Assembly: GCA_051362555.1 (NCBI GenBank)
Contig: CM120644.1
Coordinates: forward strand, 15,274,534 to 15,338,533
DNA from: Lingula anatina
Lineage: Eukaryota; Animalia; Brachiopoda
Length of the DNA: 64,000 nt
Direction: 5' to 3'
Both the position numbers and the translations under genes were made by a program. Shown here piece by piece: positions 7,002 through 63,146 of this stretch. How positions within the stretch are numbered: position 1 is the first letter of the stretch; every line of letters starts with the position of its first letter. The notes below the pieces were generated by a model that worked only from the letters and a program-made list of their open reading frames with translations, ran no database searches and was not told where the DNA came from.

Positions 7002-7110
<109 letters not shown>

Positions 7111-23696: not shown

Positions 23697-23742
<46 letters not shown>

Positions 23743-24303
23743 GTCTAATATGCACTCTCTCACTTACTGGTTTCGTTTCCTCTCCTCTGCACAGCTTCTC
23801 GTAGGCATCGTACTCCTCGTCGCGATATCCCCTTATCGGCCTCTTATTGTCAATGCCCTTCGCCTTCTCACCGTCCACGTCTTCGGCCAGTTTTCTTATT
23901 AGGAACTGGTGGTTGTTCTTTACTTTCTCGTCATTTGGGTCTGAAAAGAGTACAATATCATATCACTGGGTACGCGCATGCAATGTGATTTCGTATATCT
24001 ATGCTTTGCCGTGGATAATTATACGTGTTTGGATATTTCAGGACAGATCGACCGAAGGCAACAAAGTGATATAATTAAAACTGTATATACAGAGACATAT
24101 GCAGGAAATTTGAAGCAGATAGCCATAGGCTAATGTACTGTACGTAGGGCCTAATGATTAAATCGTTGCACATGTAATTTTCACTTACCGATCTCTAGCA
24201 TTTCCTTGGTGATATTAAAAGCATGTTGGACATTGCCTTGCTGAAATTAGATTATTTACAGCTTTAGTACAGTTTCATCCTCTCTCTCATTCTCTCTCTC
24301 TCG

Positions 24304-24373
<70 letters not shown>

Positions 24374-26364: not shown

Positions 26365-26404
<40 letters not shown>

Positions 26405-28000
26405 GTTCAAGGACTCAACTTAATAGTGGTAAAATGTTTACTGGAATTAGGTCAAAAATGTTATTAAAGCTATCACGTCCAACCTGTATTTAAGAGGCTA
26501 AACACGCTACTGACTTTTCTGTGACTAGTGCTACTTCTAAGATTTATGATGATGATATCTTAATGCATAATCTTGAATTGTCTTTATTTTCTACCGACCT
26601 GGCATAAAGCTACATGTATGAATGACACTTGGTATAGGATAAAAGCAATGATTAGTTGTCATTTATTTTAAAGCAGTAGATAGTCTATTACCTCATTCAA
26701 AACCTGTCGCATTAGGAAAAATTCATTAGGTAAAATTTTATTGCATGGAAAAAACAATTATTTTCTTAAACTGGATTACGATTGGCTTTGAAACCGCCAA
26801 ATAAACATAAAGAAACGAGTCCATTATTTATTCGAAATACACTTGAACACGTACATGTATAGCCATGCGCCATTCTGCCCAGGACCATGATTACTAGAAT
26901 AATCTGATCCTTGACCCCCACCCACCCCACCTCCACCCCCATGCGGTGTATGATCCTTGCTCTTACTCCTGACCTTTGGAAATTTAACTTTGGTCCTTTG
27001 TATATACCTATTTTGGTCCTACAGTACTATAAATTATTTGATCTCCATTTGAGATAACGAGTCATCATGGTAAGTAATGTTGCTAATCATGTTATTGACA
27101 AATAAATAATACAAGAAAAACAAAAATTTGGCAAAGACATTGTGAAAATGTAGGATAAACAGGCCCGTAGCCGGGGGGGGGGGGGGGGGGGGGGTTCGGG
27201 GTGTTTGAAAGAACCACCCCTTTTGCTGGGAAAAGGCCTACTCTGGGTAAAATTTGATCTAGGTACATAAAGTTTTTATGGAAAAGGTTCCACCTTTTCA
27301 GAAAAAGAACCACCCTTTTAAAATTGCTGGCTACGGGCCTGATAAATGATATTGTGTTTGCCAATTTTCTTCCCTAAATTACACTCTACACGTATTGTTT
27401 TATTTGCGGAGCCATTATATTTGTGGGTACGTTGACCTCATTGTACTGTGAATACATGTAACTGTAGACTACAGAGATTTGGAATATACAGTCTGAAATG
27501 TAGGCCTACATACGGCGCATATGCCCACGTGCAATGTTGTACATGTTAGGTTAAAGTCAATATACTTTCAAGAGGGGTGTGAACATTTTGTTAACATGTT
27601 GTTGTACTTCATAAATCCATTTCAGTGAGGTAGATTTGGAATATTAGGTCAAAGGTCAAAAAACATTTATTTGTTTGGACTTTTGTCGCGTTGTCTTCCA
27701 ATTGACAAAAATCATCCCCTAAGAACCTCGTTATAAATTAATTCACATTAGTGTAATGTCGACAAGAACGAGGCTCTTCTTTTAGAGCCACGTTGATACC
27801 TTTTTTATCGACACTCACCTGGAGAGTGCATCCAACATTGTCTTTTGATTCTGAACATAGTTCCTTATATCGCCCGCCAGCTCCTTCTCCGCAAGGAGAG
27901 ATCTCTCAAGATGGATAATCGATGAATAAACTTCGCCCCGTACGGAAGAAATGGCGAATACCGAGAGAAAGATCCCGAAGCAGAATGCTACCTTCTCCAT
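18601..28000 (-). CDS. P4HA: Collagen prolyl 4-hydroxylase alpha subunit, 14 exons, ~530 aa
   Basis: Exons 28000-27819, 26318-26167, 25168-24992, 24748-24588, 24240-24189, 23940-23768, 23434-23261, 23093-23023, 22613-22514, 22141-22088, 19574-19515, 19327-19259, 19099-19003, 18671-18601 (1593 nt, in phase). Signal peptide, then motifs NPVNAY, GAAAALLRLQDTY, YEKLCRGE, YEPHYD (HxD), GNRIAT, MSDVEAGGATVF, TRHAACPV, KWVCNKWIH. Paralog number is not assignable. Confidence 0.96.
19722..21915. mobile_element. ~2.2 kb TIR DNA transposon with TTAA target duplication (Kolobok-like), non-autonomous or decayed
   Basis: TTAA-GGACGCCCTCTCATATT ... AATATGAGAGGACGTCC-TTAA inside P4HA intron 10. RR..YY termini with TTAA fit Kolobok rather than the CCY termini of piggyBac. 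No intact transposase ORF. Confidence 0.75.
24280..24370. repeat. Compound (CT)n(CA)n microsatellite
   Basis: Directly visible in a P4HA intron. Confidence 0.9.
27160..27341. mobile_element. MITE with perfect 13-bp TIR and 5-bp TSD
   Basis: ATAAA-CAGGCCCGTAGCC ... GGCTACGGGCCTG-ATAAA, with an internal poly-G run. Confidence 0.85.
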
Positions 28001-30857
28001 GGCGGTGCTGTAACGCGTGTAAGCACAGTGTCGGGCAAAACCGTCATGAACGATTAATGAGATATATTTGAGTATAAAAGCCAATTGTTTTCCGTGAACA
28101 ACCACCATACACAGGTGTCACGTAGCGCTTTTACCTGAACAGCACAAACCAGTCCCTCCCGTCGCGTAGGCGGAGACGATTAAAACTTCTTCTTGATACT
28201 TTCAACGATTAAAAACTTTGGGGTTGAAATGGCCCTTTTTAATGGTCTTGTTATGTTGGGTGACTATCGTGATTTTCTAGTGTTGAAATTGAAATGTGTA
28301 ACCCATCGAAACGAGTTTTTTATATCAGCGATATCAGCATGGCGTGCGAGGGCCCATTATTAAGATTATAATGGGCATGCTGTAGCTTACTTGAATGCAG
28401 TTAACATAGGGGCAAAGAAGTATGGAAGCGCTTCATAGTTTTTCATCACGCCAATGATGCCCCCCGTGGCACGAGTGTAACATCTGCTTTTGTTGGCGAG
28501 ACATTAAATTTGTATAGTATGGAAATAGAAAAGATGGCTTATCTCAAACGATGGAATAGATTTGAAGTAATGTGTAGCTCGTATTCCTTAACTCATCATC
28601 ATTATTATGCCTAATATAAATTGCGGTAATTTGCATCGTGTGGTTGTTCATATTCTACATGTGATTATTATTTCACATGATGTAAACTAACATGGATGTT
28701 TTTGATACTGTGTCTATAAGTGTAGCATCGGTGTGTACCTGTAAAATAAATTAATGCATCATGTCTTTTTATTTGGACATGTATCCTTTATTAGTTTTTG
28801 TGATTAAGAATTTCCTGCTGTAGAAATTGTCAGTGAATTACTCCTCTCATATAGAGGACGTGGTTGGAATAATTAGGTGGTATCCAATAACATAGCCACG
28901 TGGGGTGTTCTACATGTACTTAAAGCTCTGAAAACGCGTGCACTGTGCAGGCGTCAGCGCGTGCCCGCACGCGCTTGTGTGTGTACTATATTAATTGTCG
29001 TAGGGTGGACGCTCTAGTTTGTGCGCGCATGCTCTTGTTTGTATTCCGTGTCCTCACGAGCACGACAGTGAGAATGCATAAAGTTTGGAAGTCTTGAGAG
29101 GATGCTATAGGTGTGCAAGTGTTTACATGTAGGCCTAGGAGTTGTGTATAAAATAATGCAGTAGTGGTGACAGCATCTAATGTGATAGTGTTATCAGTCT
29201 TGGATCCGAGTTTTTGCGTAATTTATAACGACGTATACATCTTGCCATTTTACTACATGGTAACGGACAGTCCAAAACAGTTTTTTTTTCTTTCTTTTGA
29301 AATGCGCACACACCTTGTGAGTGATGTGTCATTACGCGATAAAAAAAGGAGCAGGTTTGAAAACAAACAAAATGTTAATCAGGAGGATTTTGGAGAAAAA
29401 AGTCGGTAGACCGCAAGTACAATTACATGGCTGTTATGATAGATTACGACTCCAGGACCGCTTTTTGTATCCGTGAACACCTGGGAGAGTTCGTGAGCAC
29501 ATTGTGCAATTCGGCCAGCTGTGTACACATGTATAAGCAAGGTCAGGACTGACTTCTCAAACAATTCAATAAATAAGATTAGCCAGAATTGTGTTTTACT
29601 AAGATAGTAAATAATATTAGTCAATCAGGACGTTCCGTTCACCAAACGTCGTGTTTGACTGATGTTACTTTGTCTCTTATTAAAAAACAACTCCCTTTTT
29701 ACGTAATTTTGCTTACGGAAACAAGAACATAGCCGTCTTGGCGGCAGTAATTAATGATGTGAAATTAATAACATATATTTTTAAATGCTCTTCCTAGACT
29801 TCATGAATTTTAATAGTACCTACTATAATTCAAAGGCTGTTCACATTAGGCCCCTTGTTATAATTATAGTCGCCAAATGCGAGAAAGTATGTAAGTAACC
29901 AACGCTGATTTTGCGCCATAAATTAAGGGTCTATCTTTTTTTTTTTTTATCTGAACCAAATACACTGCCTGGTTTCTTCTCATTTCTGCTACTCACGTGA
30001 TATTTAGATGCATGGCTTTCCAAGACGACCTTCACAGGAATTGCACGACTTTAATTAATTTCCAATAAACGGTACTTTATAAGGAAAGAATTTTCTTTGA
30101 AAATAGCTGTTGGAAAATTACGTTTAGCGTGATATTAATTAAAATTACAAGGATTTGGTTTTTGAGATGTCATTTTAATTAAATGGCTTTATTTTATGGT
30201 GAAATATAACTGAGGATGCGCTTCTAGTCACGTCGTCATAATTACGTACGATAAAAAGAGCTGTCTTTAAGAGACCGTAGCATTATCGGCACAAGACAGA
30301 AGGATACTGCCAGCAGAGAGAACAAGGTAAGGTCTTTATTCGGGGATGACAGTTGACCGGTGATCCACAGGCGGGGTTGATTCTAGAAAGTTAGCCTTTA
30401 TTGACACCTTGGTAAGCGACATAGAAATTCAGCAAACTAGGTGCAGTGTTGCTGGATTTTGCTGTTTGGGGAGAATGCGCCATGAAAAAAAAAAAACTTG
30501 TCCACCCCTCTAGCCGAATAATAATGATGATGATATATCGACAAAGTGGTAACTTATTGAGTTAAATTTCATTTGTGTTTTTGTCAGTGACGTTTTCGTA
30601 AACTCATATCTCATACATGTAGGTACGCGTGTGCACCAGGAATCTTATGGTACGCTTTTGGCTAATAATATTACAAACATTTCGATAGAGGATACAGGCC
30701 TTTCGCAGTTAGATTATTAGATGCCCACTTTTGTTTACTGGAGAGCAAGCTATTCAGTAAAGAAAAATGTCAAAATTTAATCATCTAGCTGCAAAAGGAC
30801 CTTTGTGCTGCAATGCTGGACATAAGGCATAGTACCTACACTGCAAATATCATACCA

Positions 30858-31094: not shown

Positions 31095-32356
31095 ATGAAC
31101 TCAACCACTGGTGTGATAATCTGGCTTCTTTTCGGCTCGATTCTGAGTGCCCTTGCTTTAGGTATGTATAGTCGCACAGTGTGTATGTACGCGGATGAGA
31201 ATGTTTAGTGCTAGTAGATTTTATAGGCTAAGGCTGCATTCGGAACAGTGGACTAACTAGCCAGTGGGGCAAATATGGCGAACCACTAAAAAGCTTGCCG
31301 TCTAATCCGCTAATGGACACTTCGTAGATTCTCCGTGTTGAAGTATTCAAGTGGGTCGGCCATATTTGACCCGTGGACAAGTTAGTCCGCTGCTCTGAAT
31401 GCGGTCTAAGTGAATGCTACTGTCTTACGTCACCACCATGCCCTGAAGCAACGTAACGCCCTTTTTAGAAATACTGGATATATTGGGCATGATTTTACAG
31501 TATAGGAATATCACAGTTGAGAACTTTTAATTTTCAACAATCAAACGACCCATATCAAACAGGATCAAGCCGTTCCCGCAGCCTATGTCAAACGGTTGCA
31601 AATAGCTTCACCTAGGAAAATGAACATTTTAATAATTGTTTTCACAACAGCAAACATCATGTTGATAACAGATATATCAAATGCGTATATAATGATGATG
31701 ATGATTATGGCCGCGTTCACAACCAGTTGATCAAATATGGCGCACTTGACAATGGATACCCCGACTCGCACACACACACAATTAAATCTCGCCACTCTTT
31801 CAAGGGGGACGCGCCATATTTAATCCGCGGACTAGTTAGGGGTTGTGAATGCGACCTAATTCACAAATTCGCTTGTTTTACATTAGAGCCAATAGAGATA
31901 CGCCTAAGAGGAGGGTTTTACGAAAGTGAGGGAAGAGTGGAGGTAAGGAGGAGAGGAGGACTGTGGGGGACCGTATGTGATGACAACTGGGGGATGGAAG
32001 AGACAAGAGTTGCCTGCAGAATGCTGGGGTACAGGTGAGTTTAAGAATGAATAGATGAATATGTAGATCGATTCCTAATACATGTAGATATGTTAAATGC
32101 ATATACATCTACCAATTGAACTAGATAACGGGTACGGATAGGGTGATAAGATTATCCACACTCATTAGAAATATTTTAAGTGGATCTGTTAAGGAAAAGA
32201 TTTTTTCCTCTCTTACAGATTACAGGGACCCAAATGTCGAATTGTTCATGTCAAAGAAAGGAATTGTGGACCAAAAATTCTAAGACCGATATCTCAAAGT
32301 CGATTCTGTGTGGTAGATTGTCCGATTTTTCTATCTGTAGCCAAAGAATTGCAGCA

Positions 32357-32407
<51 letters not shown>

Positions 32408-34925
32408 TATGATCTAGATATGTTGTATTTTTTCATTGTAGGCGCTTTGAGACGGCCTTCATGGACGAAGATTATTACCCTAGGGCGCACTTTGGGAAAG
32501 GAACGGGGCCTATCTGGATGGACGACTTGGTCTGTGCGGGCCAGGAGAGTTCCCTCACCGAGTGTCGTCACCGAGATTGGGGTCAAAGCGATTGTAGCCA
32601 CAGGGAGGATGTTGGGATCAAATGTGATGGTGAGGCCAAATTCTACATTTCTTTTTATTTTCTTTTTCGTTTCCTTATTATTTTTTTTTCTTTGTCAAAT
32701 TCTTATAGTGTATTATTATAGTGCTAACTTTACCATCGACGACAGTAAATGTTCGCTTCTTGATAACGTTCTAAGGACTTTTACTTGCTTCCACTAGGAA
32801 GTGTATATGTGCAAATGTACTTGCGTCTGTATCTTGAAAACGCTCCGAAAAGTGATTTTCTTTTCACAGATTATTCATGTTAACAGCACTAGTTTTCATG
32901 GTTAACTATTATTGTTGCAAACGTCACTTAAAGCTTTGCATAGTGCATGGAACTCTTGTGAGACTCGTATTTGAAATCCAAACAGTGTTGGCGATGAAGG
33001 AAAGTGATACAGCGTATCAGGAAGGTGAGGGTGCCAGTAAACAAGAGTACCTCCGATGCTCTGACGGACATGTGTCCAACCCCCCCCCCCCCCCCCCCCC
33101 CGAACCTTGAATCCGCCATAGATCAGTTTTTGAGCCCTTTCAGGATAGAAGGTCCGAGGATCTTCTGATCCACGGAGCAGATGTGGCGGACCCTACATGA
33201 AAGAAGAGCTGACTAATCCGCTGATGGTCTCCTTGCCGCCACACGCGCCGTGCTTGCAGGGGTCTAGCAATTAAACATTGGAGCTGTGATTTAATCCGTT
33301 AAATGGCGCGTGCGGAGGCGGGGAGACCATCAGCGGCTTAGTCGGCCCTTCTTTTACGTAGGGTCCGCCATATTTGATCGCAGAAGATCCTCGGATCTTC
33401 TGTTCTGAATGAGCTCTTTTACGTTACAGCGATCACAGCAGCGCTACGGTAGCTGCCAAGACAGTCCGCATTCAAGTCTGAAAATCATACTACATATGTG
33501 TATTATCAGAACAAACTGCCTCCACTTTTGCTCAATTACAATGAACATTCCATCTTCTCTAGTGCCATGTCCAGACATTATCTATCAGCGTGAGTGGGGA
33601 GGAAGAAGTCCCGCTCTGGCAAGCCGTCATCAGATGAGTGGCCCGGGCCCGTACGTCATCATTATCCACACCGGAACACGTGGCTGCAACACCGAGCAAG
33701 CCTGTAAATCTCTCGTGAGAGAGATCCAGAATCATCACATGGATAAGAAACGTGAGTATCATATGCATTTATACATTTTAAATTTATCTGTATGTGTGTT
33801 TATAAGGGGATTAAGACCATCAAGATGATGCAAGTGTACACCCTCTTTTTGATTAAGATCATCAAGATTATCTCTGCGTTTTAAGTAAGATAAGCAAAGT
33901 GCCAAATAATATTTTTCTCTTTTATTTTCACGTTTTTATCATTGATTTGCATTAATGACTGATATACACAATAGTGTAATCTAGAAACATATGTAGTCTA
34001 TGGCAGTACTCTGTCGTCAGTATGACGTCACTGTGCTCAAACGACGACATGTATGACGTCATGTTGCTCTTACTAGTAGGTATTTTAAAACAGTGAAATA
34101 TACCATTTCCAGACTGGGCGGACATAGGATACAACTTTTTGATCGGCGAGGACGGTAACGTGTATGCTGGGAGAGGGTATGGCAAAGTTGGAGCCCACAG
34201 CGGGAGCGCAGTTAACCGCAAGTCTTTGGGTAGGTTTAACTGTAGCCCTGCATGGGTAATTCTTTATCATTATTTTCTATTTATTTATTTTCTTAGTTTT
34301 TTATGCAACTGTGGGTTTATTGCTTTGGCCGACCATTTACCTATTTATTTATTTGAAAAAGAAAAATGCTTTATTTTGTATATATAAAAACCAATTTACA
34401 TATATATTGACAGAGTAAATTGATAATGTTGTTGATATAAACGTTTAGCCTGATGCCTCATCTGATTCAGATTACATTGGTATTTATTTTATTCATATTT
34501 TTCATATTTTCAAATATAGTCATAATTATGAAACTTCTGAATGTATTGCTATTGTTAACCGGAGCGTTTACCTACATAGGGTACATGCTTATTTGCTTCA
34601 GTAATATAATTGCTACAGTAATATAATTACGGTTGGGGTACATCCTCATGTAAATATGGAAAGAAAAAAGGCAATCATCAGGTTTTCGATCATTTCAGGC
34701 ATTGCCGTGATGGGCGATTTCAGAGCCAGAGTCCCAAACGCCGCAGCACTAGATGCAATTAAAAATCTCATCGCCTGTGGAGTGAAATATAAAATGATAC
34801 CACGTGACTACATACTTAAAGGACACCGTGACGTCATCAGTACACAATCCCCCGGGGACGCTCTGTACAGAGCCTTGCAGAGTTGGCCACATTATGATGC
34901 GCATCGCTTAGTTAATACTAAGTGA
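31095..34925 (+). CDS. Secreted SRCR-PGRP fusion protein (signal peptide + group A SRCR + peptidoglycan recognition domain)
   Basis: Coding exons 31095-31161 ([22 protein letters not shown]), 31887-32034 and 32442-32629 ([53 protein letters not shown]), then 33563-33751, 34113-34229, 34699-34925 ([54 protein letters not shown]). All junctions are in phase. A likely non-coding first exon ends at about 30326 (AAG|gtaagg). Confidence 0.9.
31232..31406. mobile_element. MITE, same family as 768-950, opposite orientation
   Basis: TAA on both flanks, imperfect TIRs, interior matches the reverse complement of 768-950. Confidence 0.8.
31709..31856. mobile_element. MITE related to the 768/31232/43572 family
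   Basis: GGCCGCGTTCACAACC ... GGTTGTGAATGCGACC TIR; shares the CAAATATGG and GGACTAGTTAG motifs. Confidence 0.7.
33132..33416. mobile_element. Near fully palindromic foldback MITE in the intron between the SRCR and PGRP exons
   Basis: Left arm GAGCCCTTTCAGGATAGAAGGTCCGAGGATCTTCTG...GCGGACCCTAC...CCGCTGATGGTCTCC pairs with right arm GGAGACCATCAGCGG...GTAGGGTCCGC...CAGAAGATCCTCGGATCTTCTGTTCTGAATGAGCTC. Confidence 0.85.
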
Positions 34926-37900
34926 TGAACAATAACTTGAACTGATTCTTTCACATAATTAGTTGTAGTCTGAATTTCCAAATTTCTAAAATAAAAAAAA
35001 ATTTCTAAAATTGCTAAAATATGAAACTGAATGTTACTTTAAGCGATTTTATAAAATAACGCGCCGGACATTTTCTTTCTGAATTTCCAAAACAAGAAAG
35101 GCTTGATATAATGCAGATATAGACCAGTCCTTTAAATTAAGTCATTTAGCTCTGTTTTAATATGTGTGTTTTGTTAGTGCATATAGAATTTAATTATCTT
35201 AAGTTTAAACTTAGGCCCTACATATGTGAAATTTCTCATGAGTGTACGATACAAGACAATTCAATAAACGTCTGAAAAATATCACTCTCTTTTGAATGGG
35301 TCCATCTATGTTTTAAATATTTCAAAAATGACAAGATTATGAGTAAATGAATAAATAAATAAATGAATAAATAAGTGAACCAATTAATGAATAAATAACA
35401 TTATGGTAACGATGTACAGGTTGTGTACTGGATACAAATGCATCCTGTCCTCTCTAACACAATCCCGCCCCTGTTCTTTCATTTATTCGTCCTATGGAAG
35501 CCAATCTCTATGTCTGACCATATATGTAGTCTGAGAAAATGATTTTTGTTTTCTTTTTGTGTGTGTCAGTATGAATTTATCAACCCCTTGTTCTCTTTAC
35601 GACATGGAGATTTATTGTGCCTTCTCACACATCGGGCTAAAATTCAAAGCGTTCAAACCGAGGCGTCCGCACGGAAAGTATGTGACCTATCATCATATGA
35701 GTCAGGTGACCCTTTTGATGAGAGGTGTTCAGGTAGAACCTGGGTCAGTAGAAGATGGAGAAGAAAGATGTCCCATGCCATATTACTTCTATATCCACGT
35801 GTAGACCGAAAGGATGGCATTGAAACCAACAGCAGTTATTCCGTAAGTTCCGTACAGATGATAAAAATGTATTGTAGCATTTCTTAGTTTTGCATTGACG
35901 ATATTATCCCGAAATGGTGCATGTCGCACTCTAGGCATATTGAACACTGGTATATCTTACTGACGTGAAGGACACTTTCTCTTAGCTTTTCCTCAGTGCC
36001 TTTTCGACACCCATTTGTTTCTCATACTACAAGGTTTTCTCGTTGTTCAAGAAGGAAGTGAGGTTTCAATATGAATACAGTATATATCTGTATAATTTTA
36101 ACGTTTAACAGCCACTTCTTTATCATAACGCAAAGTATACTGACACGGATAGCTGTAGTGAACATATACTGCTTTATCAGATAAGTAGACATCGTTTCCC
36201 GAATAACAATTTATACCTTTATTTCCAGTTCCTGTAACTACTGTTTACAAAGACACCAGAAGCGTCCTACTCAAAGACATACGTGCAGGTTTCGTGGTCG
36301 ACATACACGTGATACAGCGCCGCACCCATGCCAAGATTGCCTTTTTTGTCGATGTTTGTCTAATAGTTAATTTGCAGGGACGACATTTAGTGTGGAATGT
36401 AATGTTTGAATTTGGTTATAAAATTCTGCGCCAAAAATGATATCAGATGAAGTGTCATAATAATGAGCTTTTTCTTCTTGAAATTTCTGTCAAATAGTTA
36501 ATCAGCACTAAGCGTCCGTCCTCTGTCTTCGCAAAGCAATATATGTGTTTGGAGGTATGTACCAGTCAGTTTTCTAACCTGAAATTTTTTAAATTAATAC
36601 TATCAGTGTAAAAAGAAAAAACACCTTGCTTAAGTGAAGTATAAAAACAAAATTTATAAAGTGTGTTACAAAATTATTTTAAAGCAATGTCAAGGTAGAA
36701 AACTGTACTGGTACAAAAATCCATCTATTTTTCATTGAAGTTATTGACAAGGGCAAATCTGCAATTTAAAACCTCCCTATGAATTTGTGATGCTTTTTAT
36801 TCATTTCACTTGAATTCCAATTTTTATACTATGAAGTTAACACTTCTAGAAAAGAAAAACATTGCAACCCCCATTTTGAAAAATGAATATTGCAGACCAT
36901 TGAGAACATATCGTGTATTCCGCCAAAACGCATGAAAATTTTAATCTAAAAAAACATTAAATTATTATTGTTTGAAAACCAGAACATTATGTAACAGACA
37001 AATTGTACCTACAGAATTGCAGAATTACCCACATTTACTGAAAAGATCTTTCAACAATTGTGATTATGGTAATGTGATTGTGAATAAACTTCTTTGGTTC
37101 TCGGTGTTTTCCGTGCTAGGCGGGATCAAATTTTTGTTTTCTGAAACAAAATTAAACTAGGGAGTGGGGTAGAGATCATTTTCCAAAATTAATATGCATT
37201 TTTATTGCAGTAGTAGAGTATAGAAATTTGTTGCGCACATGATGAGAAAACTGTTCATATAGTTGGCTGTGAAAAATCTCCAAAATTGGGGTCATTTAAA
37301 TGTTGTTTAGGACTTTATCCAATATTAGAAAACAAATGGCAAAAAGCAAAAAAAAAAAAAAAAAAAAAAAAAAACAGTAAAATTAAAATTGTTCTTTAAA
37401 ATGTATTTGTAGGACTGACATTTATCATAGCCTTTTCCATTTTATATTTTTTGAAATCACATGATCTATAGCAAGGCTCAATTTCACGGGGGGAGGGAAT
37501 GAGCATTCTGAAAGGATTCAATGAATTTTTAGATCGTCTACTTTATCAATCTCTCTATTTTTTTTTTTTTTCAAAAAAAGTAAAATTATAGGGGTTATTA
37601 TTCCGCCTGTAAGAGTAAAGTCGCCTTCTACATATACGTCAATTATTAAGAAATTACCGAATTATAATCTTAAATCTTAAATTATTTTCCTCTAAATCCT
37701 TACGTCTCTATTTTGCCGAAGTGTAAAAAAAACCAACACATAGTTTGTTTTGAATTTTTAAAGTTAAAAACGTGCCTAAATTTGGCAGTTGAGCGTTATA
37801 ATTGAAGTGGATCTGTCTTATACATTCTAATTTTCCTTTCGGAAGCAAGAGCAGATTTAGAAAAAAAGGCTTGGCTAGGTGTCAGTCCTGCGCGTCATGT

Positions 37901-40900: not shown

Positions 40901-43571
40901 GGAAAAACGCGAACGAAGTTTTTAGCGTCACTATTTTTTTGATAAACTGGCAGATTCAGAATATTATTTCTAGATGCTCATTTTTATATTATGAATTGAC
41001 CACGTTTTTCCGCGAACACGGTGTTTAACACGGACCTTTTTTTCTTTTTCTTTCTTTTCTTTTTCTTTTCTTTTTTTGAACGTTTTATTAGCATTTAATA
41101 AAAATAACGTCACCACCTGCTGCCTTGCTGGGAAATACCGCAACTAGTTTTACAAACATCACGGAGGCAAAGCCGGACTCACAATTATAGTAAAAAACCC
41201 GTTTAAAGGCATAAGGAGCGGTTATTCTTTGGCAAAATAAAACAAGTTTTGAATATGCTGTTTTTCACATCTTTGATTTATTTTTATAAAGACAATTTTG
41301 AAAGAAAAAAATGAAAAACCCCTTTAGACTTAGCATATTAATTACACAACGCGATATTGACATAAGTTGTATATATGAGACATATCAAAAGAACGCTCCA
41401 AGCATTATTATTGCAAATAAGCACAAGCAATTCGCCCCCTATGCCTTGAACTAGGTCACCTACATCAATGGATCGCAATGTTACACATTATGATGTTATT
41501 TGTGAAATCATGTCAAAATTACAAATGGCGATATATCACTAAACCTTTTCCTATTGTTTACTTTCGAATGTGACTATTTTGCTGTATTATTATTATGACA
41601 CGTAATTTTACTAACAACCACTCATTAAATTTCAACAGGTAAAAATTTAAAAGTGCCATTCCTCAGAATTTTCCCCACCTTAACTATTTCACATGTAAAG
41701 CTTTGCTGCCATTACAAATCCAACCGGTGTATTTTGACTTTCATGTGCTACGTGGTATAATTAAGAAAACATGGAGGACATAAAACGTCACGTGGTGAAA
41801 ATATTGAGGGACGGCAAAACCTAGTTATAAACAGGCAGAAGTCAAGTCGTTTTTTTAAAAATGAATCAAAGATAAGTTTACAACAAATACCTAAAACCGA
41901 TGTCTTAGAACTTTACGCTGAATCGGTTAAAATCGAAATATCCATATGCTTGGTATCCTGACTGCCTCATGTCCACTCCCTGGCCACTCAAAACTAAAGA
42001 AGAAGTGACATCTCTTTCAAGGGTCCAGATTAAACATGATCCAAGGGGGTAGTAGGAAGGTTGAGCGAGGTGACCTCCCTTTAATTTTTACCATTTACCA
42101 TTACCATTATTTGACAGACAAATTTTGATTAACAATCTATTAAAATGGTAATGCACAGGAAGCTTTTTGTGTAGTGCATATATCAAAATACACTAGATTA
42201 AAATAAGTCTCAGACCCTTACACACCCCAAGGTAAAATGGCATTATGTAGGTCACTGACTATCCTTGTATGGTCTACCGCATGCTGGAATCTGAGCAGTT
42301 TTTACACCGTTGGCATGCCAGACCGTACAATAGCGCCATCTGGAGGGGAACAGAAATGATCTTCTCTGCTGCAATCGGTAGTTTAGCTGATTGTTTTAGT
42401 GTGCGTGTGTGTGTGTGTGTGTGTGCGCACACCTGTGTGCTTAATCTTCAGCGCCGCAGAAATGACTGTAGCATGCAACTGGCATATATACAAACTTACA
42501 TATATACGAAAAAATAAAAGCCATTTATGAGAATAACTACACGCGTATCATCTCTGGTCCCGGTTAGTTGTCATTTTGATCTATTAATTGCATGAATCCA
42601 ATATCCATGCAAAACGACCTTAAGAACGTCACCAGTCTACAATTATTTTAAAAAAGTGATGACAAGTGAAAGTAAATTTATTATTAAATTTTAATTGAAG
42701 CGATGAAATATAACATGTAAACTATCCCAATTGGTCAAGTATTTTAACCGAACTGAAAAGAAAAAAACATGCATTCTCAATATTGATATATTTTCATCAT
42801 GGCAACTTCAAAAATTGAAACAAAACTCTCCCGCTAGGCTATGCGATATATAGCGACAACGCTCGTGTGACGCTTTTACGGTGACTAACATGTATAAAGC
42901 GATGGGAGCACTTGTTTTTTGGGGCGGAATTAACCCTTTGAAAGGTCCTTTCCTATTTCAAGAAGATTGTACCTTTTGGGGCAACTATGGCTTGATTTCT
43001 AAGCATAGCATATGCGGCTCAACACATTGTTTTAACATGTTCATAACAGAAAAGAAAACAATCGCATAAACGAATTTTTGATTTATTAGAGGTATAAATA
43101 TATCTTGTCAATTTTCACTTCGATGCAAAAATAACAAAAATTAAACTCATTTGAAAAAATCCACATTGCGGTTTAAAGTGACTATAAATGTAAATTACCA
43201 CATTTTTAAATGCTAATTATTAAATTAAATCTACCAGTATATATAAAAAGACAAATAAAATTACTAAGTGGCTGACCCACCTACCATATCGCTAAGAGGT
43301 ACATAGCAATGAACACAAGAACGGTTAATCTTCTGCAATTAAAAACACATAACAAAATCCCACAATTAACAAAACATACCACAACAAAAAGAACGTGATG
43401 CCCGTATTTTGAAAAACCCGTAGAAAATATCCACCAAAACTACGTCCCCACTGCAAAATGCTAATAGTATCTATATGCAGAAACAGTTTCGACATTATAA
43501 ATTTTCCGAAAAGGTTTCAAATAAAATGCTGTAAATACCGTATCCCAAGTTATTGTAAATGTGTGTTTGAA

Positions 43572-43741
43572 AGCACTCACAACCGGATCAAATATGGTTA
43601 ACCCATTTGAAAGCTTGCGTGAATAATCCCCGCGGGGAATCTATCCAGTGTGTTGGACGATAATGCGGCAAACTTTCAAGTTGGTCAGACGTGTTCGATC
43701 CGTGGACTAGTTAGTCCGCGAATCAACTGGTTGTGAATGCT
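43572..43741. mobile_element. MITE related to 31709-31856
   Basis: AGCACTCACAACC ... GGTTGTGAATGCT TIR, with internal TCAAATATGG and GGACTAGTTAGTCC. Confidence 0.65.
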
Positions 43742-43974
43742 CTCTATGACACTTTTCCATTGTTCCTACCCACGGCCAGGTCCTATGTCCAATTTTCTTG
43801 AAAACATCCCCTACATCTAAATTTACCTATAAAACGCGTGTAAAATAATCGTCGACCAAAATTTCCTACGTATAACCCTTGGCAGGAATACCGGAATGTT
43901 TAGAAGTATTATTCAAATACTGATATCACACAAAGAAGAGAATGCATCTTTATAAACAGAATATTAGCAGTTTT

Positions 43975-46900
43975 CTATTTCCAGTAGCCTGACCCATGCT
44001 TTTGGTACCATTGAATCGTCTGTTTCAAACCTTCTTCCCAGCTTGTCTTGGGTTTCCACCCCAGTAGATGGAGCTTTGACGAGTCGATGACGTAGCGGAT
44101 GTCGTTATACGGACGGTCTTTCACGTGCTCAATATTCAGCGGTTTTCCCAAAAGTCCATGCAGCTTTTTGGCTATGGCCATCACGGAATGCTCGTTGTTC
44201 ACGCCAATGTTGTAGATATTGCCCACCGTTCCCTTGTGTAGGAGCAGATCAAACGCTTCAACGGCATCATTCACGTAGAGGAAGTTTCGTTCGTTTTGGC
44301 CATGGCCATAAATTGGACAAACTTTGTCTTCAATAATGCTAAGTAGGAAAACTGGAATGACCTGAAATAATAAATGTCGAAAATGCGACTCATCGCATGC
44401 AAAGAACACGAAGGGCATTCTATCTCAATACGTAGGTGGGTTCTTAACGTCTCGCCTACTTTATACAATTTTTATCTCTCTCATATATAACGCATAACCA
44501 CAGGCGATGCAAGCCAGTTTCCTCCTTCTCACTGTTTTACGTCAAAGAAAAACACGCCCAGAATAAGTAAGTCCACATTTTGTGGGCAAGAACCATTTAT
44601 CGTTAAGAAAGGGTTTTCGTTCTAGGAGACTTTGAAATACCAGTGTCTCGCTTTTCATTAATCAAATCTCTTTCTTTAGTCTATAGTTACCTGTTTCAAT
44701 TGCTTTTTTTAAATATTAATACGTATTCTGATTTTTTTTCTTTAATTTCGTTATAACCGTTTATCGAATATCTGATTACTTTTTTTATTTATCTGAACCA
44801 GCCTACCTTCTCCGGGTACTGACACGGCCCGTACACGTTGTTGCTGCGTGTGATGATGACGGGGACATGGAAGGAGTGATGGTAAGACTGGACCAACATC
44901 TCAGCCGCCGCCTTGGACGCCGAGTACGGGTTGGTCGGGGTCAGGGTGGCGGTTTCTTTGCGCGGAATCCCGTCTAAGGCTTCGCCATAGACCTGCCACG
45001 AGGAGAAAAAAAAACAGTATTGTTGAAAATAAAGGAGATTGTGGAGGCAGTCTGATAGTGTGTATTGGGTAAAAACACATTTGTTAAACCAACGACTTTC
45101 TAACTTTTTCTGTAATTGAGCATTTTGGATAAATAATTATTTTAATAGTTATTATAATTCATTTATAATATTTGATTGTATTTACACTATACATAAAAAA
45201 CAACCCATATTGACTGTAATTTTCTTAAAAAGTTTTCATTAAAAGAATGAAAACAAGTATCTAAAAAATAGCAATAACGAGTACAGTATATTCAGAAAAA
45301 CCAAATACCAAAGTATAGTTAAACTAATAACAATAATGATAATGAAAACAATAGAACACATTTTCAAAGAAATAAATAGACCGATGCTCCATTTTACACC
45401 TCCCAAAAGATCAGGAAACTACAGGAAAGAAAAATTTATCAGTATTAGCTTGGACCCACCATACATGTATAATGAATCCAAAGTTTTAGATAAAACATAC
45501 CTCGTCAGTGCTCACATGGAGGAAAAGATTCACGCCAAAAAACTTGGCGCAGTGCAGGAGAGTATGAGTCCCGATGACATTGGAGTTGGTAAAGTCGTTG
45601 GATTTACTGAACGAGTTGTCAACCAGAGTTTCCGCGGCAAAATGCATCACTGTGTCGATCTGATAAGTCTCGAAGATTTCCTTCATCTTTTCAATGTCGG
45701 AGACGTCAGCTGAAACAGAGATGCTGGGGTCGTAAAATCAGTGGCGTAAACTATTGAAGTTGTTTCTAATTTTTTTCTATTACTTTTTCTTTTGTGAAAG
45801 TGCTTTTCCGAAGTTTTGAACTTGGACTTCAGGAGCTCAATTTTTTCTTGGAATAGATAATTTCAGAGACACTTCAAAATTTTCCCTTTTATGATTTTTG
45901 CATCTGACCTTTCGCGTCAACGCTATGTAGGTTTAACAGTTGACACCAAATCATTGTAATATGTATGACTACGCATTTACAATAGTGTAACACAAGCACA
46001 ACAACTGCAATTCCCATTCAGTATAGTAAGTGACACACAGTGTATCATACCTCTGATGAAAACAAAAATGGATTTTCCAACCATAACTATTAAAAAACCC
46101 AGTGAGTATAACCAATACAAAGTGACATACCGTACCTTTGATGAAAACAAAATTTGACTTTCCTTTCGAAGCATCGAGATTTTTCTCATTAGCGCAGTAC
46201 GTCATCTTATCCACGACCACAACATTGTAGTATCGATACCGTTCCACGAGATAATTGGCCACGTGGGACCCAATGAACCCAGCGCCACCTGTGAGCAAGA
46301 TATTTTTCCGGATGTTCTTCTTCATTCGTTCAAAAACACCCTGAATGGCGACGCTGATGTGGGGAATCTCATGGTTTGGGAGAGCTGCTTCGAGTTTAGT
46401 GGTGTCAAGGCAGTTATTTGAGCGGCCTGCCTTCACCAGGGTTTTCAGTTCTTCAGGGTCCACCAGCTCGTACTTGTGGTCGGGGTCGATGTTGCTCTTG
46501 TACAGGGCTAAGATCTCGGAGTGGCTGATCACACCAGGGTTGACAAAGTTGTAGACACCTAAAATAATCACGTCCGTTGTTAATTTACCTACTGGTACGC
46601 ACCCCACTTAATTCAGCGTCAATAGGTTATTTCTTGTTTACCAAAAAAACTTTAGCCCGAGCACTTACGGAAAATATTAGAACCAATGTTCCGTCTGGTG
46701 CATGTTTCAACCTTAGATAAAATTTTAAGTGAAATTATGCGCCCGTATCATAACAAATATGACATGGTTTATGTTTTAGGTACCGGCAAAACAATTATGT
46801 ATTGCACGATCCGGTCTAAGTTAAGGTCCAATAGTGAAATAGAAAGTTTTTTCACGTCTGAAGATAAATGAACAGTAGATGATATCTCATAATTTTGGGG

Positions 46901-48037
46901 ACAATCCCCAATAGAACGATGCGTCTGTACGCACAGCTCCTGGAGACGGTTTAAAAACCGAATTTCCGTCAAATCGATCGAAACATTAAGACAAAAAATG
47001 AAGACTCATGAAATTAAACAACTGTACCGTTAGAAGGGAAATTTCTTCTGGAAATAATGTTTTGATTTTCTTGTATCCGAAACGAATTAGATGTTACACG
47101 TAATTGTACCTGTGATTCCCTTTTCCATCATCACAAATGAAAGAGGAAGAAGATCGTGTAAAACGCTCATAGCGTTTGGGATGTCGCAAATCTTTGGGTA
47201 GTTGGTGATCTTTGTGATGAAGTTCCTTGGGTGAAGGTCGTCTGAGATGGGCATGCGCACACGGAGAGTCAAAACATTGGTGTAAGAATGCAGCAACCTA
47301 AAATGAGAAAGTAACAATATAGAACTTGGAGAAATATTGTAATATTGAAATATTAACATGAAAGAGAGAGAGTGATGTGCTCAGCATTTGGTACCTGTAC
47401 TGGTACAGTGCATGAGCAAAAATTAGAACATTAGATTCCATCGTTTCTTTTAAAGTATTTTCATTGGTTGAGTTTAAATGTATACATATTATATCAGTGA
47501 TGTTTTTTCCTCATGCTTTTTTTTCACCATCTCTGGCTGGCAGATGAATTAAAACATATCACCTGGTGTCTGCAATGCTAACACACTCGATGTTGGTGAC
47601 ACGTATGAGAAGCGTATTTTCACAGGTTAAAAAAACTGACATCACTGACCTTTCTGCCATGGCCTTAGTCTTAGAATAAAACGACCCTTCAAAATTAGGA
47701 ACATCTTCCTCCGTAAACCCCCTTCCCCCGATAGGGTGTTTCTCGTCGTACTCATAAATACAGCCAGTGCCGAAGTATGTCACGTGGATCCCTCTAGCGG
47801 CGCACAGATCAACTACAGTCAGCAGACCCGTGACATTGGAGCGGATGGTCTCTTCTTGGTGGTTTTCGCACCAATCGACGTTGGGTCGTCCTGTTACCCC
47901 TAGAACATGTGAGATACAGAATAGTATCGCGTCCATAGTGTTTAATATGTATTTATATAAGGCACAAAATGAAACTTACAGTATCGGTCTCGCCGTTATA
48001 CAGGGAAAAGTTCTGAATTTTCTATGATGACCAAGGA

Positions 48038-48079
<42 letters not shown>

Positions 48080-49319
48080 GTTGTTTTAATATTGACAAAA
48101 CATGCGTAAAACATATTTTCGAGTGCTTTATTTCTAAATTTTACAGCCACGAAGGTGAATGCGGTAATTAAATGAGTGCATAAATGTGTGCAAAAAAGTC
48201 GTTAAAATATATCGTGATTGTGCTTTTGTACCAGTCGTTAATGCAATAATATAACTTCAATGACCTCATTCTCTCATCGGCACGACAAAGATGGCCCTTT
48301 TTACTAGTTTACGGGAAGTAAATAAAATACGACAGAACATATTGAAGAGAGCACGGTGAAATTTTGCCTTTTTCTGGCAACGTACTGACAATCGACGTTT
48401 CAAACCACGGTAGAAAAAATAGTAAAGAATTTTTATAAATACAGGTGGAGTACATGTATTTCACTCGATTCAAAGTGTTTTATCGTGATATGCATTGACG
48501 ATCTGTAGAACACTCAACAAAGGCTACTATCTCTGATATTCATATCGAAAGAAACTAATGTTACATTTGAAGCCCCTTTTCACATGTTGCAATATATTCA
48601 TCTGTATTGAAATATTTTACTGGCCCGAACACGTTATTGCACTACAGAAAAAAAATCGGGGGTGTTCCCTTTCATCTTTTCGCTTCCAACTCTGTGTGGA
48701 ATCAAAATTAATCTAGTGAACTCCCCGTGGAAGCGGCGGGGGGGGGGGGGGGGGGGGGGTCCGGTTAGAGGACCACTTTAGGATATCGTCAGGATATTGA
48801 GCTGTCGATACCATGCAGATATGTTGCTCTCTTACCGCAGGGTGCGCAAGTTACAAAATAATGTTGTGCTCATGCTTAAATTATGCACACTTTTCAAAAG
48901 ATTTTGATTTCAAAAGGTAAAGGTAAGTATACTGCACGATGCACAGCGTACATGTAGCCCATATTCTTATTCATCTAGGATCAAAGCATTTCGCTTTTTA
49001 TCAAAATTTCCACTGCTACTGTAATCATATCGTTCTAGCTGAGCTCTATAATCAAAATTAATCAGGCTTTCACTATAGAAAGTAATATATGTTAAACCGT
49101 GACTACTTGAATGGAAACACGCCTGAAAGTGTGCATACCTGCAGCTATGATGACATATTTTGGTTGAACTGCATCCAGTTCTCGTTGAACCTGTTCTCGT
49201 TCTTCCATGCGAGAGTTGGAGCACGTGACTTGGTAGAGTTTCTCCGCCATCAGGTGCAGTAGCTTCCCGCCTATCCATCCCGTACTCCCAAATAGATGTA
49301 CCTTCACCGGAGATGACAT
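43975..49319 (-). CDS. Putative trifunctional NDP-L-rhamnose synthase: N-terminal 3,5-epimerase/4-reductase (UER1/NRS-ER type) + C-terminal NDP-glucose 4,6-dehydratase (RmlB/RHM-N type), 7 exons, ~607 aa
   Basis: Exons 49319-49139, 47899-47650, 47297-47110, 46558-46136, 45709-45501, 44992-44807, 44361-43975 (1824 nt, GT-AG, in phase). Domain 1: GSTGWIGG, GVTGRPNVDWCE, GTGCIYEYD, PNFEGSFYSKTKAM, LRVRMPIS, PRNFITKI, YNFVNPGVISH.EIL, RSNN.LDTTKL. Domain 2: NILLTGGAGFIGSH, HFAAET.VDNSF, HVSTDEVYG, PTNPYSASKAAAE, TRSNNVYGP.QYPEKVIP, DRPYND.RY, LGWKP. Confidence 0.93.
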
Positions 49320-49740
49320 CGTGTTTTAGACAGCTGCGGCCGACAACGGTGTTCTGACAAAGATCTTAATTGAGCCTATCCCTAGAACACAGATGTACAC
49401 GATATAATGCGAATTAATACATTTTGTAAATTAAGAACCCGCGTGTTAGAAAGCATATTCATAGAACCTATCAGCTGAATCGTGAGTCATTTCTTATACT
49501 ATATAGCAGTTTCTATCATGTATGTGAGACCTTTGGCCCTATTAAAATAATCAGATCTCTATCATTTATGAATATGTTGCGTTAGTAAACCTTCCAGCTT
49601 TATTTCCAAAGGTATTTTCCTCTTATTTCTGCATTTATTAAAACAACGTTCTTAAACGTTTCTCAAAATGTTGATATTTTTACCCTCATCAGGATGAGAT
49701 GATAAAAATTTTATAAGAACTCAAGTAACTTTCGGAGATA

Positions 49741-53152: not shown

Positions 53153-54762
53153 ATGAGTCAAGACACTTATAGAGATAAAATGTAAGTACAATTTCTTTTG
53201 CTATTTTGGATGCTAGATGAGAATAAGGTATGTTTGTTCATGGAGGAATTCAAAATGCCCAATATGGTGAAGGCAATCGCGTTTGTTGCCGTAAAATGAG
53301 TGTTTAAAATTGTACAACTGCAGTGTCGAATACTTGTCTTTAGCTATGATCCGATAGAAAAATATTTCTAGTCTCGAAATTTTACCTCTATGTAAAGGAT
53401 TAGCCTTAGATGCGGCAATAATTTAACCTCAAATCGTGTTTTGAATTAAAATGACGCAATTCCTCTCCGATTTATTCGACTCGCCGACATCGTTTTAGGT
53501 CTGGTATTTTTTTACCTACGGTTTAGATAAAGGTGGCATCAACACCGCTGTGTACTATATGTATAGGTTTATGTTACTTGCTTAAGTGAGCCCGAATTAT
53601 TGAATGATAATTAATATTTTTAACTGTTAATATGGGCTCTCGTTGCAACATGACACCACACATGCAATTGTGACACACAAAAACGCACCTGTGATCCTTT
53701 TAATATCGTTTTATCAAAGTTGACATTAACACTGCTCTGAAGTATATATATATTTACACATTACCGGCTACAGTCAGCTCCGGTCTGAGAATGATAATTA
53801 TTATTTTTCTAACTCTAAATATGGGCTCTCGTTGCAACATGACACCACACATGCAATTGTGACACACAAAAACGCACCTGTGATCCTTTTAATATCCTTT
53901 TATCAATGTTGACATTAACACTGCTTTAAAGTATATATATATTTACACATTACCGGCTCCAGTCAGCTCCAGTCTGAGAATGATAATTATTATTTTTTTA
54001 ACTCTTAATATGGGCTACCATTGCAATATGGCACCACCCATGCAATTGCGACATACAAAAACGTACCTGTGGGCCTTTTAATATCCTTTTATCAAAGTTG
54101 ACATTAACACTACTCTGAAGTATATATGTATATTCACATGACCGGCTAAAGTCTGCTCCAGTTTGAGAATGATAATTAATAGTTTTTCATTTTTAAATTG
54201 GATTCCCTAAACAGAATAAAGACGACTGACAAACACCCTCATTGGTCTTATAGTGAAAGTGTATATGTGGACATGTACACATGCAAAGTGCATGATTATA
54301 TTTACTTGGGTAATGGTCATAAAAGTAGATCTTGATCACATTTTTGATAAGAGTCTCACCTCTGAAATTGCCTTGCTACATTGCATTATCTTGTTATCAG
54401 GTGCTTGAAATCTTTGAAATAATCCTGAGACATGCCTTTGGATAACACCTAGCTGGCTTTATCAAATCATCAAAGGGCCTGACGGTGTAGTTACCTGGCT
54501 GATAATGATCTAGAAAATCCATGCCTTACAAGGGAAGTAAATTTAACTAGAGGGAAAATCTACCTGACAGGTAGAATCTTGAGATGCATTTGATAAGGCT
54601 TACCTGTGGCTCAAATGTCCAAGTAGAAGTAAAAAAGGCAATTGTCATTTATAGTAGTTTGTGATAAAAACATTCTTATTCTCTTCCAGATTCTCTCCAC
54701 AAGATGCCGGAAAGTTAAAATTGGACAATGCACCATTGCCCAAGAGGAGACGCACTAATTAA
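53153..54762 (+). other. Candidate two-exon small gene (33-aa ORF MSQDTYRDKIFSPQDAGKLKLDNAPLPKRRRTN) or spliced ncRNA
   Basis: CpG-rich patch with a TCACGTGA E-box at ~53048. Strong donor AT|gtaagt at 53182, strong acceptor ttctcttccag at 54689. The join is in frame and AATAAA lies downstream (~54965). Confidence 0.4.
53602..54180. repeat. Tandem repeat, three copies of a ~188-bp unit
   Basis: GAATGATAATTA..ATATGGGCT..GCAATTG..GTTGACATTAACACT recurs at about 53602, 53789 and 53978. Confidence 0.92.
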
Positions 54763-57176
54763 ACATTTAGACAATAATTCACATAGGTCAATAAGAAATT
54801 AGTTTATACCTTTTATAAATAAGTTAATACTACTCGTGCTACAAATAGGAAAGAACTCCAACATGACTTTCACAAAAAGAGACAAGACAAGAAAACTGCA
54901 CATGTATTGTATATTCAGCATCACTAGCTTTGTAACAAGCATTTTTAATGTTTACTTTTTTAATAATAAATATTGGAATGTACTCAAGTTGTTTTATATT
55001 TGCTATCTTATAATGAAAAAAAAAAATGAAATGTAAAAAACATGGATTATATGTTTAGACAGTTTTTTTCTTGCTTGATTGAAATTGCATATTCAATTAC
55101 CTCAGAATACACTAACTACAGGTTTAAAAAATCTGATCCTGATAAAATTCATACTCACATTTGACTTTGACCGTCTTGCAGTGATATGCGTCTTATTTGT
55201 CAAATCTTTTATTATTATAATATATTAAGTTGTGTAAAAAAAAAGGAAGTGAAAAGAAATAAAAAGAAGATTTTTTATGTCAAATATATGCATTTTTTAT
55301 AACCATAAGATCAGTATTGGTGAAATTAATCTTATATTGTAAACGGGTAACTTTTAATGAAAAATAAAACGAAATATAAATGAAAGATAGTTGCTGACTG
55401 AAAAACCAAATATTATGAATACTTATAGTAAGTTCTTGAATTATGACTGCTTTTCAGTTACTGAAAACAGAAAGCCATATTTTGGTACCTGGTGTATTAT
55501 TTTCTACCAAACTAATACAACAAATCTGACTTTTAAATAACTAATTAAAATTAATGTAAACCTAGATGAAATTTCTAATTAAGATCTTAATTGCTAAGTG
55601 AAAAAACCCAAATGTTATAAATGCACAAGATCATACTGTCTGTTTGTTGAAAATCTAGGTAATAATTCAAGCTGTAATTCTACTCTTCCTTTTGAGAGAC
55701 TTTCTCAATCCTTTTTCTTTCGTAGATGCAGACACAGATTCTTGGTACTTTTCTTTAAGCTGTCTGCGAAATGAGTGGCCCCTAATGGTAATATATAATT
55801 TCACAAACATGCTAAAAAGGTCCATTTTTAATTTGTCTGATTCACCAGCAGTCAGTTCTTGTGTAAATTTGATTGATCTTCCGGGGTGTCACAGCTACTG
55901 GTACATGTAGGAATGAGATTTCCGGTCGTTGGGTGCGTATTTCTGTCCTGTCAGAGACTACCTCACGGGCAGAAAAAGACAGCAGGTATTGAAGACAAAC
56001 TTCACACCCCGTTTTTATGAGGTAACGGGGAAAATGCCGAAAACCCCTCAATAAATTTCCACGTGTTGACGGAAACCTGTGTGCTCGCAACTGCAAAATG
56101 GCGGCAATGCTGTATCATAGTAACCACGAGGGACTGCGAGAATTTGCGTTATCAATGCAGAGAAACAATAGAAATGCACTGAAGCACAGCGCGCGCTACC
56201 TTGATAATAAGCTGTTCAGACGCCCGTGGAGCTATCAAAACAGATTATGTGAGACAATAGGCGAATGTTTACCCGAACGCACATAGCTTCAAAGGAAGAT
56301 GCCGCGTTACTTGTCCTTCTCTATTTAGGTCCATGTGTTAACCAAGGCGCATCATTGTGAATATCTGTTAATATTGGTAAATTACAGGATGGGTTCGTTC
56401 AACACTAATAAGAGCAGTTTAGTCGAGGCAGTGACGCATAAATTTTGTGCAGTATTTCCATTACAGTTTACACCGCTTTTTAATTGCTGCTTACTTTCGC
56501 CCATCAGGAGTATACTATAGTGTAATTAAGAAAATACCAAATCAAGTCAAAACTAAGCAGATTTTATACGCAAAATGTGTGCACCGCTGACGTGTCTGAG
56601 ATATTCATGATCAGTTCTGTGGGACGATTTACATACAGATTCACATTGCATATATGTTCATTGCATGTCAGCTTAAGTGTTTGGATTCTAAATTTAAAAA
56701 ACAGACCACGCCAAATGGGTTGAGTCGACAACTTTGTACAAATGATTCGAGCTCACAATGCAGAGAAACAATACGGAATATAAGTAAATAAACGTGTTAA
56801 CTACTCACCTTGTTTCCGCTCTGTGCAGCCTGCGCTTATCTCTCCCTTTCTCTCTCCACGTCATCAACTAGATAGCCTATCTCCCCATTCAGCAGGATCA
56901 GACGTAGCCGCAAGCAAACTAGTAGTCACACGGCAGTTACAGATTTATTACCACCGAATAACTGACACTGCCACAACCTGTATCATCCACCTTCAAAAAA
57001 TAATTCAACATGCGCTATAGGTTTCATATTCCACAGTTTTACTTCATGTATGACCCGTATATCTACGTGTTTCGTAATGGAGGGTAATAAGCATGTATGT
57101 GCAATAATTATGAGCACATATATTGACATTTTGGCTGATCCTCGAGGCATCCTCTTGGTAATAATGTGAATGGCTG

Positions 57177-62698: not shown

Positions 62699-62922
62699 TC
62701 ATTCCATGCAGTATCCGCGGTCGTGCTCTTTACAGAAGCGCATGCCCAAGGGTCTCGACAGGAAGCTGCTTCGCGGACCGTTATACGTCCCGCGGGGACA
62801 GGCCCACAGAAAGGATGAACGCATTGAACAACGGATGAAAGTACATTGCGGATCGCCCAGTGTCGGGTCCAGGTTGAAGTAATCCCCATCCGGCAAGTTT
62901 TGGCATAGGTCTGAACCTAGTA
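62699..62922 (-). CDS. Terminal exon of a small Cys-rich protein with a chitin-binding type-2 (CBM14/peritrophin-A)-like domain; 5' exon(s) not located
   Basis: Acceptor tattttag, then LGSDLCQNLPDGDYFNLDPTLGDPQCTFIRCSMRSSFLWACPRGTYNGPRSSFLSRPLGMRFCKEHDRGYCME*. Six Cys in a C..LPDG.Y...C.F..C......CP.GT...C...C pattern. GC-rich relative to the flanks. Confidence 0.65.
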
Positions 62923-63146
62923 CTAAAATAAAAAAATGGGGAAACTCTGTATTAGGTTGTTTCTTTCTTTCTTATTTGTTTATTTATTTTCATGAAATGG
63001 ATAACAATGTGTACCAGAAGATGCTGATGATATTTCCATTACGGATGTTCATAGAAATATAACGTTTTTAAACAGAATTTGATGATGATCAAGTTTCATG
63101 TAACTTTGTGTTTGCAGTCTTGTTTAAGATTATGTGCGTGCATGTG

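Follow-up and report, generated by a model that had tools for sequence, protein, structure and literature searches.

The 64,000-nt stretch of brachiopod DNA analysed here (the window; filed under Lingula anatina, GenBank assembly GCA_051362555.1, contig CM120644.1, positions 15,274,534 to 15,338,533 of the forward strand) carries on its minus strand, within positions 49319-43975, a gene encoding an epimerase/reductase domain (E) followed by a dehydratase domain (D) in one polypeptide. The gene is real, transcribed and conserved. Judged from its sequence, the protein is probably a horizontally acquired one-chain enzyme that likely turns nucleoside diphosphate (NDP)-glucose into NDP-L-rhamnose. 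According to a 2023 paper (PMC10473587; papers given by PMC number are cited here and below from their available sections), no known metazoans but nematodes encode a pathway to L-rhamnose, and a one-gene animal rhamnose synthase has apparently not been discussed in the literature.

The coding sequence of 1824 nt (607 aa plus stop) is divided among seven exons by six introns, all of them GT-AG. Coding exon 1 with its 5' untranslated region (UTR) occupies 49139..49381; the ATG lies at 49319, and the coding part (49319-49139, aa 1-60) includes the Rossmann motif GSTGWIG, while RNA reads place the start of this 5' UTR at a likely acceptor at 49382. Exon 2 (47650..47899, aa 61-143) holds Thr105, Cys107, Tyr135 and Lys139, and exon 3 (47110..47297, aa 144-206) holds Lys173. 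Exon 4 (46136..46558, aa 207-347) encodes the end of the E domain, a linker of near-zero length and the start of the D domain with GGAGFIG. Exon 5 (45501..45709, aa 348-417) carries Leu376, at a site where His is usual, and the catalytic Thr415-Asp416-Glu417; exon 6 (44807..44992, aa 418-479) carries Tyr440, Lys444 and Asn469; and the coding part of exon 7 (43975..44361, aa 480-607 plus stop) carries Tyr497, at the nucleotide-selecting site, and Arg504. The boundary between the E domain (residues ~1-287) and the D domain (~290-607) falls near residue 288, within exon 4, which makes the fusion independent of any splice prediction. The 3' UTR extends over 43359..43974, as delimited by stranded read depth and a cluster of read ends at 43359, and contains a short dispersed repeat at 43675-43719.

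All six splice joints are found in RNA runs X1 (7-52 reads per joint) and X2 (5-28 per joint), in which the strand-specific reads cover the exons and leave the introns nearly empty. Together with the exon model, these joints confirm the original prediction of an intact, spliced 607-aa reading frame bearing two short-chain dehydrogenase/reductase (SDR) domains and the quoted motifs. Run X3 contributes four fusion-gene joints among those listed (23 further joints are unlisted) and run X7 contributes 14 reads with one joint read; joint reads are few in X8 and X9, next to nothing lies on the gene in X5, and X4 has no reads. The loose ends of four X1 reads at 49383 match 56811-56823 exactly, which is the sole match in the window when up to two mismatches are allowed. 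These reads, rather than a joint, point to a likely non-coding first exon (3' part 56809..56830, minus strand; donor AG/GTGAGT at 56808) that ends at 56809, upstream of a 7.4-kb intron. Three tandem copies of a 189-nt unit lie at 53614-54180, within this likely 5' UTR intron. The coding sequence shows signs of purifying selection, 24 of the 29 listed read variants being silent against 22% expected (p 8e-12).

Lingula anatina XP_013399968.1 (607 aa) is the protein's best match, with 84% identity over 606 aa without gaps, and makes a lingulid host likely; it comes from a different species or lineage, is encoded on a 1.14-Mb contig and has the same length and domain order. Its only name is the automatic RefSeq one, 'trifunctional ... 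RHM1-like', which bears out an earlier caveat that homologues might already be annotated. Both lingulid proteins have Leu376 and Tyr497. At least three annotated copies or haplotypes are present in Lingula anatina, namely XP_013399968.1, XP_013421209.1 and the partial XP_013407717.1.

The domain order is reversed relative to plant RHM and the catalytic residues are kept, both as originally described, with the motifs GSTGWIG at position 11, YSKTK at 135, GGAGFIG at 297, TDE at 415 and YSASK at 440. The N-terminal domain shows the features of NRS/ER (UGER) enzymes, an SDR fold with GxxGxxG, Thr and YxxxK, and all four of the NRS/ER-type motifs from which a close match to the plant enzymes had been proposed are present. 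Its Cys107 and Lys173 align with Cys108 and Lys175 of mimivirus L780, for which mutagenesis is reported to show catalytic roles (PMC9614988). The C-terminal domain has the features of NDP-glucose 4,6-dehydratases (RmlB/UGD), with the fold, GxxGxxG, Thr-Asp-Glu and YxxxK, and Asn469 and Arg504 are intact. Over 399 E and 468 D domains the catalytic columns are near-invariant, and all are kept in the brachiopod protein. For XP_013399968.1, the best solved relatives are Arabidopsis NRS/ER (4QQR, 1e-91) and mimivirus L780 (7JID) for the N-terminal half, and mimivirus R141 (6VLO, 5e-83) and bacterial RmlB for the C-terminal half. Its AlphaFold model (predicted local distance difference test score 87.7) consists of two SDR domains joined by hardly any linker, and fits those solved folds with target-normalised template modelling scores of 0.88-0.95. 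No cupin domain was found in any exon of the fusion gene.

The gene is already present in databases under an automatic name, and its reversed order is not unique to this animal. Among 249 proteins, retrieved with a query that spanned the domain junction and thereby enriched the sample for the reversed form, the order is reversed in 101, that of plants in 112 and D-E-E in nine. Named reversed fusions come from Lingula and from chytrids (Blyttiomyces, Borealophlyctis and, in part, Rhizophlyctis), the rest of the ~100 being mostly unnamed. In viral contigs, a reversed fusion in a single open reading frame (ORF) occurs at 17 of 97 loci, 11 of the 17 being giant-virus metagenome-assembled genome (GVMAG) records; the plant order occurs at four loci, and both genes occur separately at 20. 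Of the ESM Atlas clusters of ~600 aa, the nearest have 83-100% viral members, chiefly Nucleocytoviricota. The proposal of an independent fusion unique to this animal is thus unsupported, and the accompanying statement that fungi and giant viruses use two separate enzymes does not always hold, even though the available literature describes only separate enzymes for chytrids and giant viruses.

Two-domain RHM has been reported from plants and nematodes only (PMC3220709, available sections), and an NRS/ER clade described as Dikarya-specific lacks early-branching fungi (PMC8092308), a lack that the chytrid reversed fusions (P0146, P0147 and P0017) may explain. RML-4 homologues are described as patchy and possibly spread by viruses (PMC10473587); the available supplement of that paper lists the Lingula protein without comment, and Lingula is the sole non-nematode animal among the tip labels of its Fig. 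S6. In our searches, the best 120 of 324, 120 of 7998 and 120 of 3095 matches, most of them unnamed, contained no further named protein with an E domain from a non-nematode animal. Besides these fusions, Chlamydiae and Dependentiae/Babeliales genomes (L193-L243) carry plant-type NRS/ER genes with 46-60% identity to the brachiopod E domain, often adjoining an RmlB-like gene. Other architectures (P0002-P0007, P0011, P0015, P0020, P0056 and L036) include D-E-E in Cymbomonas and similar proteins, an RmlC domain joined to E and D, and E and D joined to a 2-oxoglutarate-dependent (2OG) oxygenase.

Among known systems, plant RHM1-3 likewise combine in one chain both activities that are predicted here, and the domains of an Arabidopsis RHM are ~50-51% identical to those of the Lingula protein. 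Plant RHM has the dehydratase first and His at the UDP-selecting site, whereas the brachiopod protein has the reversed order, almost no linker and Tyr497. It likely works like plant RHM, yet it lacks these two RHM features (order and His), and we do not count it as an RHM. Arabidopsis NRS/ER and mimivirus L780 share the fold, the catalytic Cys and Lys and the YxxxK of the N-terminal domain but stand alone. The same is true of mimivirus R141, fungal and Trichomonas UGD, animal TGDS and bacterial RmlB, which share the fold and TDE/YxxxK of the C-terminal domain. Eukaryotic and viral dehydratases have His or Gln where the brachiopod protein has an RmlB-type Tyr. The fusions of chytrids and giant viruses (RKO91246.1, KAJ3274874.1 and GVMAG loci L018-L042) have the same order in a single ORF and are 39-52% identical to the Lingula protein over near full length; the lingulid linker is shorter than that of the chytrid fusions. 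Caenorhabditis elegans, which makes deoxythymidine diphosphate (dTDP)-rhamnose with RML-1 to RML-5, uses separate proteins including a bacterial-type RmlC (RML-3), in contrast to one fused chain without a cupin. The separate nematode proteins were named in the original prediction; nematodes also possess NRS/ER-like domains, in RML-4 and in the two-domain RML-5; the latter has the plant order and lacks the catalytic residues.

From characterised homologues we infer that the D domain, with bound nicotinamide adenine dinucleotide (NAD+) and using Thr415/Tyr440/Lys444 and Asp416/Glu417, would convert NDP-glucose to NDP-4-keto-6-deoxyglucose, and that the E domain would invert C3 and C5 via Cys107 and Lys173 and reduce C4 with NADPH (Thr105/Tyr135/Lys139), yielding NDP-beta-L-rhamnose. 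Features of the substrate pocket and of the neighbourhood weigh against rhamnose synthesis. Leu376 replaces the His of the AA[EQ][ST]HV motif, which is His in 447 of the 468 dehydratase domains and Leu in just four, three of them lingulid. We take this His to contact the substrate diphosphate; it is not known to be catalytic. Tyr497 is likewise atypical, Tyr occupying this column in 31 of the 468 dehydratase rows, and no rhamnosyltransferase was recognised with Pfam among 83 further ORFs nearby, on which the search gave nothing useful. The Leu376 substitution would fit a weak or dead dehydratase half retained as a scaffold, as in nematode RML-5, with TGDS supplying the keto-sugar. This is very improbable given that TDE, YxxxK, Asn469 and Arg504 are intact and that the D half is as conserved between the two species as the E half (84.5% versus 83.6% identity). 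An enzyme whose N-terminal domain merely reduces, a behaviour reported for Trichomonas TvRED and C. elegans RML-4, would instead make another 6-deoxyhexose such as NDP-quinovose; RmlD-like domains without epimerase activity do exist (PMC9741107), but both epimerase residues are kept here and NRS/ER 4QQR is the best solved match, so that this outcome too is hardly to be expected. As to the nucleotide, Tyr497 aligns with Gln206 of R141, the equivalent of TvUGD His214, and this position is His or Gln in uridine diphosphate (UDP)-preferring enzymes and Tyr in dTDP-preferring bacterial ones (PMC9741107). L780 and R141 both take UDP and dTDP sugars (PMC9614988). UDP, the default of the family, is slightly favoured by analogy, and Tyr497 points to use or tolerance of dTDP as a less probable possibility; given the pocket changes at Tyr497 and Leu376, either nucleotide may be used. 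By analogy with the nematode cuticle, one may guess at a role of the predicted product in an extracellular glycan.

The two domains were analysed in separate trees, with 93, 65, 44 and 51 rows of ~400-500 domains for E and 175 and 52 of 468 for D; eight long-branch E rows were removed before some of the E trees. Three trees (Shimodaira-Hasegawa (SH) support 99; 92/77; 98/94) place the E domain as sister to three uncultured reversed fusions, and the sister of the D domain is a further uncultured fusion of reversed order, P0377 (SH 93; 94/86). Since both halves have reversed fusions as their nearest relatives and the gene is seemingly restricted to lingulids, we prefer a single transfer of a ready-fused gene in reversed order, passed by a giant virus or microbial eukaryote to a lingulid ancestor and followed by intron gain, a scenario to which these sequence relationships would give about an even chance. 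Several results speak against it. The E sister is unresolved in two quick mixture-model trees, and the best sisters of the two halves differ. Approximately unbiased (AU) tests left all four alternatives standing: grouping D with the animal TGDS of eel and Styela (p 0.50, a difference of 0.89 log-likelihood units) or with the E-sister group (p 0.44), joining D to bacterial-like RmlB (p 0.52, the constrained tree being 0.47 higher), and grouping E with the chytrid fusions (p 0.35). No locus close to P0051 or P0023 was found in the viral contigs scanned, and none close to P0377 in the viral or prokaryote contigs scanned. In the free trees that resolve them, the sisters of the two halves are non-animal reversed fusions.

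The AU result for D with TGDS, the differing sisters and a linker shorter than that of the chytrid fusions would suit a fusion of the same chemistry made in the animal, as the original prediction had it, in which an epimerase/reductase of foreign origin became linked to a copy of the animal's own TGDS-type dehydratase, and the presence of both orders among the viral loci indicates that fusion recurs. This origin is nonetheless unlikely: lingulid D is apart from the eel and Styela TGDS, and from chytrids, in the free D trees, where TGDS forms a separate clade; each half has reversed fusions as its closest relatives; and the pocket residue of eel TGDS, the one readable named TGDS row, is Gln, not Tyr. 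We doubt to a similar degree that the reversed fusion already existed in an opisthokont ancestor, was retained by chytrids and disappeared from almost every other animal. The chytrid fusions, the AU test for E with chytrids and the Sphaeroforma RML-4 homologue in Fig. S6 of PMC10473587 are consistent with such vertical inheritance, but lingulids and chytrids are never grouped in any of seven free trees and many independent losses would be required. An intron common with fungi near the YPEK motif was rejected, the sites being two bases apart at all eight fungal-type loci, and a possible intron match to human TGDS at that motif carries no weight here. A bacterial source of the whole gene was also rejected, with no reversed fusion at any of 80 GTDB prokaryote loci and with dehydratases beside the Chlamydiae/Dependentiae genes just 32-39% identical. 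That a protist or fungal gene was placed in an animal scaffold by contamination or misassembly is largely refuted, even though every close relative outside the lingulids is microbial or viral. The orthologue lies on a 1.14-Mb contig, spliced stranded reads occur in runs bearing the same species label, and the GC content at third codon positions is host-like (0.60 in the coding sequence versus 0.45-0.62 across nine neighbouring exons). In addition, the repeat at 49744-50008 matches 9910-10192 (72%) and a 45-nt piece of the 3' UTR matches 31346-31390; these two repeats shared with other parts of the window support a modest version of the earlier claim of shared families of miniature inverted-repeat transposable elements (MITEs).

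If active, the enzyme runs counter to the published view that no animals other than nematodes make rhamnose, a view that the presence of an intact, expressed and selected synthase in two genomes of lingulid type opens to testing. [quoted passage not shown] The fusion gene is not mentioned in the available text of PMC6556577 and PMC7540406, Lingula is absent from the supplement of PMC9741107, and a literature search, largely outside of which lie subscription journals, returned no paper discussing the brachiopod gene or reversed fusions. Rhamnose made by this animal would suggest a rhamnosyltransferase and a glycan not yet known from animals, the enzyme would be the first characterised reversed one-chain example, and its Tyr497 makes it well suited to testing the His/Tyr rule put forward for the choice between UDP and dTDP. 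A bolder and rather doubtful scenario is that lingulids are a second rhamnose-making animal lineage, whose synthase was taken over from a giant virus and adapted to dTDP-glucose (Tyr497, Leu376), arriving by convergence at the nucleotide that nematodes use, and serves an undescribed rhamnose glycan of shell, cuticle or mucus.

The fusion gene sits among animal genes, as the original prediction stated, its flanks including a prolyl 4-hydroxylase alpha subunit, SRCR and amidase (PGRP-like) exons and alpha/beta hydrolases. The alpha/beta hydrolase (Abhydrolase_3) genes form a tandem array at 1-17000, with similar exons at 104, 6572 and 13320 and also at 3799, 10197 and 16559. The prolyl 4-hydroxylase alpha gene lies at 23200-28120 (minus strand). 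At 31600-34930 (plus strand), SRCR exons are followed by amidase (PGRP-like) exons, which may form a single SRCR-PGRP gene and have low read depth in the RNA runs examined; a MITE-like element with inverted arms of 75 nt lies at 33175-33379. A spliced X3 transcript (35170-36500, plus strand; joint 35842-36229, GT..AG) has no Pfam match. A cysteine-rich exon at 62699-62971 (minus strand), also without a Pfam match, presumably resembles a chitin-binding module.

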